Source: Staphylospora marina (lineage in GTDB: Bacteria > Bacillota > Bacilli > Thermoactinomycetales > Thermoactinomycetaceae). From it: a stretch of DNA of 32,000 bases. The stretch lies in assembly GCF_003856495.1 (NCBI RefSeq), contig NZ_CP034118.1:2511842-2543841 (forward strand), given 5' to 3'. The notes below the pieces were generated by a model. It was not told where the DNA came from. It worked only from the letters and a program-made list of their open reading frames with translations, and made no database searches. A program made the translations under genes and the position numbers. Each line of letters begins with the position of its first letter. The stretch's first letter is position 1. Below, in pieces: positions 688 through 7,829 of this stretch.

Positions 688-726
688 GGGATGAGACCTC
701 CGTGTGTTTATTTGTTGCAGAGTCTG

Positions 727-1321
727 CCGCCGTGGCTGTTCCCGGCGATTGCCTTTGCGCCAGCAATGAAATGAGCCGGGAACGGCCACGGATTCGGATT
801 TTTAGCATTGTGTGACCAAGCATACCGAAGACAACCCCTGCTTGTTTCGTTGCAATGGCAAAGGCACTCGCAGGGATTGGGGCCGGCTTTCTCACAAATG
901 CATCACCGCCGTGACTGTTCCCGGTGAATGCCTTTGCGTCAGCAACGAAATGAGCCGGGAACGGCCACGGATTCGGATTTTTAGCATTGTGTGACCAAGC
1001 ATGCCGAAGACAACCCCTGCTTGTTTCGTTGCAATGGCAAAGGCACTCGCAGGGGTTGGCTTCGGCTTTCTCAACAAGCCAATACCTCTGCCGCGTGACT
1101 GTTCCCGGCGATTGCCTTTGCATCAGCAACGAAATGAGCCGGGAACAGCCACGGTTTTCCGGCTGTCCAGATGCTCGCCGGATGCCAAACTCCCGCTCGT
1201 TTCATTGCAATGGCAAAGGCACTCACAGGGATTGGGGCCGGCTTTCTCACAAATGCATCACCACCGTGTTCCCGGTGAATGCCTTTGCGTCAGCAACGAA
1301 ATGAGCCGGGAACAGCCACGG
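727..1321 (+). repeat. Repeat array 1: alternating hairpin modules A and B with a ~180-bp period (3.5 units)
   Basis: A modules (46 nt; stem GTTCCCGG/CCGGGAAC; 30-nt loop) lie at 738-783, 917-962, 1101-1146 and 1268-1313. B modules (stem CCCTGC/GCAGGG; 28-nt loop) lie at 836-875, 1015-1054 and ~1191-1230. The A loop and the reverse complement of the B loop share the core TGCCTTTGC-N4-GCAAYGAAA. Confidence 0.9.
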
Positions 1322-1436
1322 ATCAAGGATTGACCTGTCTTTGATATTCGAGGACGAAAGAAATTTTGGGGCCGATTCAACCGCCTTCGGTGCGATGTCA
1401 TGAATGCGTCCCGTTTGAGGACTCACCGTCGCTCTT

Positions 1437-1485
1437 GCAAAGAAAAAGGGAACTCTCCCACCCGAAAGGGTGAAGAAAGTTCCCT
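1437..1485 (-). terminator. Rho-independent terminator of the arg operon
   Basis: Minus strand reads AGGGAACTttcttCACCCtttcGGGTGggagAGTTCCCT followed by TTTTTCTTTG, about 80 nt after the argF stop. Confidence 0.75.
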
Positions 1486-1567
1486 CGCCAAGAAAAGTCG
1501 GGGGCAATCAGCTTCATCCGGCAAAGCTTTGAATCCTGCCGGGAGACTGCCGAACGGAGATAGCCGT

Positions 1568-6840: not shown

Positions 6841-6861
6841 GCTCATTCCCTCCTCGATATG

Positions 6862-6895
6862 CATCATTATACATTCGAGTTCATATTTATTCAAC
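6862..6895 (-). promoter_or_regulatory. argC sigmaA-type promoter overlapped by two ARG-box-like (ArgR/AhrC) sites
   Basis: Minus strand: TTGAAT (6889-6894), 17-nt spacer, TATAAT (6866-6871). The candidate boxes are gtTGAATaaatATGAAct (6878-6895) and ctCGAATgtatAATGAtg (6862-6879), compared with the consensus wnTGAATwwwwATTCAnw. Confidence 0.6.
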
Positions 6896-6964
6896 ACTTT
6901 TTTCCCGTTTCGTTTTCGCCGGGGAAACGGAAGATTCCGGAAATGAACGGCGACTCCATCCAGC

Positions 6965-7630
6965 CTCCGCGATGAAATGCATTTTCCCATGCCAGGCGAG
7001 AAAGCCGGATCATTCCCGCGAGTAACTTTGCCACCACAACGAAATGAGCGGAGAATTCTCCGGCAGACATTGCGCACACAATGAAAGCCCGACCCAATCC
7101 CTGTGAGCGCCTTTGCCATCGCAACGAAACGAACAGGGATTGGCGTCCGGCGAGCATCCGGACAAGCGGAAAACCATGTCTGTTCCCGGCTCATTTCATT
7201 GCTGACGCAAAGGCATTCGCCGGGAACAGTCACGCCGACGACGCAATTGCTTGGTGAGAAAGCCGTAGCCAACCCCTGCGAGTGCCTTTGCCATCGCAAC
7301 GAAACGAGCGGAGAATACTCCGGCAGACATTGCGCACACAATGAAAGCCCGACCCAATCCCTGTGAGCGCCTTTGCCATCGCAACGAAACGAACAGGGAT
7401 TGGCGTCCGGCGAGCATCCGGACAAGCGGAAAACCATGTCTGTTCCCGGCTCATTTCATTGCTGACGCAAAGGCATTCGCCGGGAACAGTCACGGTGGCA
7501 AGGTATTTGCCTGGTGCGAAAGCCGGGTCATTCCCCGCGAGTAACTTTGCCACCACAACGAAACGAGCGGAGAATACTCCGGCAGACATTGCGCACACAA
7601 TGAAAGCCGGACCCAATCCCCGCGAGAGCA
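6965..7630 (-). repeat. Repeat array 2: same module family as array 1 in inverted orientation, with a 260-bp-period tandem duplication
   Basis: Core-containing modules begin near 7019, 7094, 7186 (inverted), 7270, 7354, 7446 (inverted), 7527 and 7613. Segment 7046-7234 matches 7306-7494 with one mismatch (177 bp identical). Segment 7011-7100 is approximately repeated at 7520-7612. Confidence 0.9.
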
Positions 7631-7666: not shown

Positions 7667-7697
7667 AAAAAAACAAACGCTCGCTTGTTCGCGAGCG
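7667..7697 (-). terminator. Rho-independent terminator downstream of the cytochrome c gene
   Basis: Stem CGCTCGC (7678-7684) / GCGAGCG (7691-7697) is followed on the minus strand by TTTGTTTTTTT (7667-7677). Confidence 0.65.
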
Positions 7698-7829
7698 CAT
7701 GAACACTTTTTTTTCGATTCGCCGAACGGGATGTTGCAACTTTCGGCGGTCGAAATTCGTCTGTTGCACCAGATAAGCGACAATGGGGGATTGTGTGCGT
7801 TTCCGGTATGAAGCCACGACAAAGATGAC

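Follow-up and report, generated by a model that had tools for sequence, protein, structure and literature searches.

The closest described counterparts of the repeats reported here are the REP sequences and BIMEs of Enterobacteria and Pseudomonas, intergenic imperfect palindromes of about 20-40 nt that often lie just past operon ends, build mosaics of alternating orientation and reach tens of copies per genome, with a cognate Y1 transposase gene (RAYT) as their defining feature. A second body of comparison is provided by the bacterial MITEs, such as Correia/NEMIS in Neisseria, ERIC/IRU in enterobacteria, RUP/BOX in pneumococci and bcr1 in the Bacillus cereus group. In Correia elements the conserved centre is an IHF site. 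Among insertion sequences, a 4-bp YTAR target duplication is the signature of IS5-group elements (ISfinder). The hairpin family that we describe from the genome of Staphylospora marina (2.75 Mb, two contigs, 57% G+C, 99.8% complete) has points of likeness with each of these systems. We found no published description or name of it in the literature, in keeping with the first-pass annotation, which had not recognised a named element, and the family is apparently undescribed.

The arrays flanking the arg operon

The window, which is the whole stretch of 32,000 nucleotides analysed (C1:2511842-2543841), carries argCJBDF on its minus strand. In the gap between the terminator of this operon and the next gene, the first-pass annotation had placed a repeat array of seven modules alternating in orientation, and this array is indeed present at window 723-1329. 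The same core was said to flip from one hairpin to the next with a period of about 180 bp; correspondingly, a 21-nt core, GCCTTTGCNNNNGCAAYGAAA, occurs seven times in the array on alternating strands, and Tandem Repeats Finder (TRF) reports a 179-bp period with 3.4 copies at 727-1323. Across the whole window the core occurs 12 times, against 0 expected from 100 shuffles. The linkers between the modules of this array (array 1) are themselves repeated. The features of the region are as follows, with the module coordinates taken from covariance model R1.

723-799, plus strand: module A1, with stem CCGTGGCTGTTCCCGGC/GCCGGGAACGGCCACGG and core GATTGCCTTTGCGCCAGCAATGAAATGA; covariance model 71.7 bits; DNA fold -27.4 kcal/mol, z -6.3
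817-893, minus strand: module B1, with the core on the minus strand; covariance model 76.3 bits; flanked by MITE-like terminal-repeat remnants, GCATTTGTGAGAAAGCC ... GGTCACACAATGC
902-978, plus strand: module A2; covariance model 77.8 bits; DNA fold z -3.5
996-1072, minus strand: module B2, the best-preserved B copy; covariance model 82.1 bits; DNA fold -23 kcal/mol, z -6.2
1086-1162, plus strand: module A3; covariance model 71.6 bits; DNA fold z -4.9
1171-1248, minus strand: module B3, with degenerate stem CCCGCT/CACAGGG; covariance model 69.4 bits; DNA fold z only -1.3
1253-1329, plus strand: module A4, with the 5' arm partly deleted; covariance model 58.4 bits; DNA fold z -3.2
~1440-1487, minus strand: canonical intrinsic terminator of argCJBDF, separate from array 1; RNA fold -32.9 kcal/mol, z -3.7; stem followed by UUUUUCUUU
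6998-7589, mixed strands: array 2, of the same family; seven modules in the order ++-++-+, 260-bp period (TRF); covariance model places them at 6998-7071, 7081-7157, 7166-7242 (minus), 7256-7331, 7341-7417, 7426-7502 (minus) and 7516-7589

Array 1 thus lies downstream of the arg terminator and ends 36 nt from the start, at 687, of the next gene, whose 223-aa product has no Pfam match. The A-module stems were located exactly as previously given in all four copies (GTTCCCGG at 738, 917, 1101 and 1268; CCGGGAAC at 776, 955, 1139 and 1306). The stems given for the B modules were exact in two of three (CCCTGC at 836 and 1015; GCAGGG at 870 and 1049), the third being degenerate (CCCGCT at 1192, CACAGGG at 1224). 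When each copy was folded, the stem lengths of 8 bp and 6 bp originally assigned to the A and B modules proved too short, with real stems of about 17-18 bp containing one bulge, as in the CCGTGGCTGTTCCCGGC/GCCGGGAACGGCCACGG stem of A1. Likewise, what had been drawn as an open loop of 28-30 nt is instead an irregular helix consisting of tandem G.A/A.G, two Watson-Crick pairs, a small internal loop, a 4-bp TTGC/GCAA mini-stem and a variable tetraloop. Past the hairpin, nothing more than CTTTCTC is found in the B modules, and no T-run adjoins the A modules. The flanks of B1 resemble the terminal repeat AAGCGTTGTGAAAAAG of the related genus Paludifilum, a likeness judged by eye.

The array had been considered very unlikely to be coding, and a codon-usage gene caller places no gene within it; the sole ORF call reaching into it belongs to the neighbouring gene, whose start was called too far out. 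Nor is it a CRISPR array, in which direct repeats of 28-37 nt alternate with unique spacers of similar length, whereas array 1 has 179-bp units, alternating orientation and repeated linkers; true CRISPR arrays with different repeats are found elsewhere in the genome. Rfam 15 returned no match over the whole window at gathering thresholds, and at E<=10 over 650-1600 only chance miRNA-type hairpin matches far below threshold.

Array 2 is positioned with the terminator of the upstream gene (7677-7698) on one side and an arg promoter-like site (6866-6894) on the other. Arrays 1 and 2 are in inverted orientation and match on opposite strands at 84-87% identity for about 230 nt, so that they bracket argCJBDF as long inverted repeats, which could in principle invert or mobilise the 5.6-kb operon. 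At 6850-6900 we also noted a sigma-A-like promoter, TTGAAT-17-TATAAT, upstream of argC (minus strand); an AT-rich stretch overlapping this promoter resembles an ARG box by eye.

Copies across the genome and their CRISPR neighbourhood

The family is dispersed and not confined to this locus: when the whole genome was searched with covariance model R1, about 79 distinct copies were recovered in 31 clusters. An intergenic bias was also found, all ~79 copies in all 31 clusters being intergenic according to the codon-usage gene caller, whose 2,276 calls cover 83% of the chromosome; many clusters are placed either 13-100 nt beyond a stop codon or in the gap of a convergent gene pair. Further arrays, at 566.7, 706.5, 922.6, 1767.6 and 1996.0 kb, consist of multi-module units in tandem, and several of them alternate in orientation; orientations are mixed within the arrays at 922 kb and 1996 kb as well as in the two arrays of the window (723-1329 and 6998-7589). 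Orientation with respect to genes turned out to be mixed in this genome. Among copies without a link to type-1 CRISPR arrays the core is mostly on the lagging-strand template, a tendency inseparable from co-orientation with genes. A T-run follows one orientation of some copies, namely the type-1 CRISPR-linked ones and three others, at 63052, 392934 and 2013389. In many copies one orientation would be read as a hairpin followed by a U-tract, resembling a terminator, with the other orientation reading through.

A CRISPR repeat is found within 300 nt of 16-17 of the 31 clusters. At C1 2405720-2411640 there are ten tandem CRISPR mini-arrays of 2-10 repeats each, built from slightly different repeat variants, every one with its own conserved leader of about 190 nt and with one hairpin between neighbours, 3-5 nt beyond the degenerate terminal repeat; no cas genes adjoin this ten-mini-array locus. 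It is these mini-arrays that account for the evenly spaced copies at 2.406-2.411 Mb, for which integron attC sites were considered and rejected. A second CRISPR repeat type, GTTATTGAATCCAGTGTGGATTGGAAAC, forms tiny arrays beside a truncated cas1, and here too the hairpin follows the terminal repeat, in the opposite orientation. In both repeat types the hairpin stands 0-28 nt beyond the terminal degenerate repeat, and in type-1 copies a T-run comes next. The segment at C1 2010873-2013699 contains the truncated cas1 (Pfam Cas_Cas1, 5e-65, profile positions 43-282) and a short ORF, possibly cas2, flanked by two near-identical hairpins 2,000 bp apart, and looks like a relic adaptation module.

These associations raise the possibility that the hairpin is a CRISPR accessory, which would mark or terminate the trailer ends of arrays or seed mini-arrays, with the arg-flanking arrays as strays. 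The share of clusters close to a CRISPR repeat, the recurrent placement past the terminal repeat in both types together with the T-run in type-1, and the hairpins flanking the cas1-cas2 relic all speak for it, but the hairpin is oriented oppositely in the two CRISPR types, one hairpin-plus-leader block has probably given rise to most of the linked copies by duplication, CRISPR arrays are close to only 1-2 of the approximately 45 Paludifilum copies, and the arrays in the window have no CRISPR repeats near them. We accordingly regard this explanation as very unlikely.

Two further observations were made at the CRISPR-linked copies. In one leader copy, at C1 2408825-2409014, the hairpin is almost entirely deleted (aaagccggaaccct/CACACAAT), apparently by a deletion with short CCCT direct repeats at its borders. 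Also, the motif CTCnCACACnAAT occurs in direct orientation on both sides of CRISPR-linked hairpins (C1 2406061-2411291 and 2010873/2388636); a long target duplication, a part of the element and a part of a degenerate terminal repeat are all candidates for its nature.

MITEs in related genera and the search for a transposase

When 53 Thermoactinomycetales genomes from 30 genera were searched with covariance model R1, the element was detected in 12 genomes and 9 genera, a patchy distribution, and it was detected in none of eight genomes from outside this order. An exact-pattern scan of one genome per species (185,579 species) matched Paludifilum halophilum about 45 times, a Planifilum MAG twice and Kroppenstedtia guangzhouensis once; the singletons elsewhere amount to a handful, about as many as estimated by chance. 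In metagenomes seven true copies were recovered, and a single sample accounts for six. The family is specific to Thermoactinomycetales. A phage origin was considered as well and rejected, since none of three pattern matches in viral contigs is a real hairpin.

In Paludifilum the hairpin is the centre of near-identical elements of about 150 bp that end in terminal inverted repeats, AAGCGTTGTGA ... TCACAACGCTT. Among the 33 copies with both ends recognisable, 29 are flanked by identical 4-nt sequences, 26 of which are CTAG, the others being TTAA and, as direct repeats that are not palindromes, GTAG/GTAG and TTAG/TTAG. From these last flanks it follows that the duplication comprises 4 bp (CTAG/YTAR) and not TA only, and a TA duplication of the IS630/Tc1-like kind was rejected on this ground. 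Insertion at such sites can be followed in a second dispersed repeat family of Paludifilum (about 38 copies, ending ...CCCAACTTGGTTNCCAGATGGGGCACTAG (...GGGGCACTAG)), the terminal CTAG of which is a recurrent MITE insertion site: some copies are empty and some have the MITE inserted exactly at the terminal CTAG. The same core was found in a member of another genus (G045, 28 copies) within a MITE that has different ends, GGGCGTGTCTG.../...CAGACACGCCC. In S. marina remnants of MITE-like ends are seen only around B modules (GCATTTGTGA ... TCACACAATGC), and for the majority of local copies neither terminal repeats nor target duplications can be recognised, with no target duplication detectable for the copies in the window. 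One of the Paludifilum MITEs has its core inverted with respect to the arms on either side, the outcome to be expected when recombination or template switching takes place inside the inverted repeat.

The Paludifilum copies between co-directional genes show an orientation bias, with the core sense in 20 and antisense in 3 (binomial p ~2e-4), a count that leaves out three more sense-strand copies overlapping doubtful ORF calls. In the antisense orientation the MITE has CTTTTTC right after the hairpin, resembling a terminator, and in the sense orientation it presents an outward-facing TGCTAAAAT, which resembles an extended -10. The bias was not reproduced in G045, where 7 sense and 4 antisense copies were counted and the MITE has no T-run. 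Because the MITE without a T-run shows only this 7:4 distribution, the terminator-like polarity suffices for the bias in Paludifilum, and no RNA function of the core is required for it.

The first-pass annotation had likened the array to BIMEs and pointed to a RAYT or IS200/IS605-type transposase as a possible partner. The architectural part of this likeness stands, in that the repeats are intergenic and multi-copy and form clusters of alternating orientation, and the part concerning membership does not. No Y1 transposase (PF01797) was detected in the 99.8%-complete genome in a search to which the controls responded; the defining feature, a cognate Y1 gene, being absent, membership in the REP/RAYT group fails. 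Domains of TnpB, DDE_3 (IS630-type) and DDE_Tnp_1 (IS4/IS5-type) were likewise not found in this genome, and the search for Y2_Tnp was uninformative, as its controls were silent. Among the relatives, Y1 genes are present in Paludifilum, G001 and G045 and absent from G038 and G049, which also carry the element, and no hairpin occurs within about 2 kb of the Y1 genes examined in Paludifilum and G001. A hairpin inside or beside IS630-like or Y1 genes was sought and not found. An autonomous partner with matching ends was found in none of the genomes at the DDE_3 or DDE_Tnp_1 genes examined, in a search that was not exhaustive since the relatives are draft assemblies. Hence, although intergenic hairpins in clusters of alternating orientation are what a true REP/BIME system mobilised by a RAYT would produce, we consider such a system exceedingly improbable here, given the lack of Y1 in this genome and in two other carriers, the Y1 genes without an adjacent hairpin, and modules of 77 nt, twice the REP length of ~35 nt.

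We consider it somewhat better than an even bet that array 1 represents fossil MITE-derived palindromic repeats which were locally amplified by tandem duplication. According to this explanation, a palindromic repeat of about 77 nt is carried in related genera by MITEs of about 150 bp, in Paludifilum inserted with a 4-bp CTAG/YTAR duplication as is seen for IS5-group elements. The copies in S. marina are most likely immobile descendants of such MITEs, because the tested transposase families are all absent from its genome, and they would have survived in 'safe' DNA outside genes, in this case the gap that separates a terminator from the gene after it. Array 1 would then have grown by tandem duplication of an inverted A-B pair, the 179-bp unit, and this duplication would have generated a BIME-like mosaic without a RAYT. 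Orientation-dependent effects on transcription are a likely consequence.

The conserved core and comparison with known systems

Every copy folds into a long hairpin. The module of about 77 nt has three layers, a variable but self-complementary basal stem, a nearly invariant internal-loop helix and a variable apical loop. The invariant irregular helix reads 5'-GA GU GC C U UUGC-N4-GCAA C G AA AC GA-3', and its internal-loop bases, GAGUGCCUUUG / CAACGAAACG (... CAACGAAACGR), are almost invariant across genera. The basal stems, on the other hand, are unrelated in sequence across genera and differ between copies, yet they are complementary, and the apical loop varies in length from 4 to 11 nt across genera. 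In an RNAalifold analysis of 42 local copies, compensatory double changes were found at 12 of 18 predicted pairs. An alignment of 90 distinct copies from 12 genomes (S. marina and eleven relatives), which was fitted to the model and so favours the structure, gave standard pairing in 90.9% of cells, compared with 67.4% after shuffling and 33-44% when the partner was slid; the covariation score was 0.576 against 0.167 for shuffled data, and 19 of 23 pairs had changes on both sides. Two pairs inside the former 'loop' show Watson-Crick covariation, from G-C to A-U and from U-A to C-G. Positions 31 and 48 co-change in a non-Watson-Crick fashion, with C/A in 72 copies, A/G in 10 and C/G in 0. The A/G state, which makes a second tandem G.A, seems from a reading of the listed sequences to have arisen at least four times independently. 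This co-change argues for a folded single strand, RNA and DNA not being distinguished by it.

If the family were purely a selfish fossil descended from MITEs, there would be no explanation for internal-loop bases that stay near-invariant across genera while stems and terminal repeats diverge, nor for the C/A to A/G co-change at 31/48. A protein-binding or structure-specific role of the core, in RNA, single-stranded DNA or duplex DNA, is a live alternative, and it can take more than one form.

One possibility, to which we assign a low probability, is that the conserved internal-loop helix is a functional single-stranded motif, either a site for a conserved RNA- or ssDNA-binding protein or a processing signal, with the arrays as multivalent platforms and with MITEs and tandem duplication merely spreading the motif. 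The pattern of conservation is that of a binding motif, in that the internal-loop bases are invariant, the basal stem is free to change and the apical loop ranges from 4 to 11 nt; the Watson-Crick covariation inside the 'loop', the recurrent change from C31/A48 to A31/G48 as read from the listed sequences, the occurrence of the purine-purine mismatches on one strand only and the sense-orientation bias in Paludifilum point the same way. Mismatches in the stems, however, show no strand signal in an unbiased count (46 G.U-type vs 48 A.C-type; a model-fitted count of 67:36 leans to G.U and is biased by the model), orientation to genes is mixed in both S. marina and G045, transcription may be low at the sites of the arrays here, which have a terminator on one side and a gene or promoter on the other, and no Rfam family matches.

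The symmetry of G.U and A.C mismatches (46:48) is rather what would be expected of a palindrome kept at the DNA level. The hairpins might thus constitute a DNA-level architectural element, as proposed for BIMEs, in which the palindromes would either extrude or recruit a nucleoid, bending or topoisomerase protein, their central site would help MITE ends to synapse, and the arrays would organise or insulate the arg region. The core dyad TTGC-N4-GCAA, the two inverted arrays bracketing the arg operon and the location of copies outside transcription units are consistent with this, and a central site for a host factor would account for a conserved core beside diverging terminal repeats. The co-change at 31/48, on the contrary, is a misfit for two half-sites in duplex DNA, and we know of no candidate protein; we judge an architectural role to be distinctly improbable.

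More speculatively, the invariant irregular helix, with its two G.A-rich internal loops around two Watson-Crick pairs, could be a new structured motif read by a conserved factor of Thermoactinomycetales and spread, by MITEs with different ends and by tandem duplication, as a portable regulatory or architectural module that reached CRISPR tails as well. We put this forward tentatively, as an idea with perhaps a modest chance of being right.

The repeats represent a new, defined family of intergenic palindromic repeats for a Gram-positive order in which we found none described, and they suggest that BIME-like mosaics can arise without a RAYT. The contrast between an invariant hairpin centre with structural covariation and freely changing stems and transposon ends points to a constraint other than transposase recognition. 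The conserved core offers a concrete motif for tests of binding partners, and a second lead comes from the repeated placement of the hairpin immediately beyond the final CRISPR repeat.

Compared with the REP/BIME systems, with which they share intergenic imperfect palindromes often just past operon ends, alternating mosaics and tens of copies per genome, the present modules are about 77 nt long and not ~35 nt, their stems are variable and only the asymmetric internal loop is conserved, whereas the REP stem is conserved; they have no cognate RAYT, reside in a Gram-positive order and have relatives with terminal inverted repeats and target duplications. Integron attC sites, which stand in one orientation between cassettes and have conserved R''/R' sites at the stem base and a variable centre, are the reverse of this hairpin, in which the centre is conserved and the base variable. 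The direct 4-bp repeats flanking the Paludifilum copies, overwhelmingly CTAG with TTAG, TTAA and GTAG variants, are like those of the IS5 group, although no IS5-type transposase gene with matching ends was found and the S. marina genome is without any DDE_Tnp_1 domain. With respect to bacterial MITEs, here it is the central hairpin core that is most conserved across genera while the terminal repeats differ between genera, most copies in S. marina lack terminal repeats and occur in tandem arrays, and the autonomous partner was not found. Nevertheless, the elements of Paludifilum and G045 are MITE-like in being about 150 bp long and non-coding, with terminal inverted repeats and tens of near-identical intergenic copies, and those of Paludifilum also in their short target duplications and orientation-dependent terminator- or promoter-like features; like a Correia element, the hairpin element is a long foldback with a conserved centre. 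Because the hairpin forms the centre of MITEs in two related genera, we class the family with the MITE-type repeats that form BIME-like mosaics.
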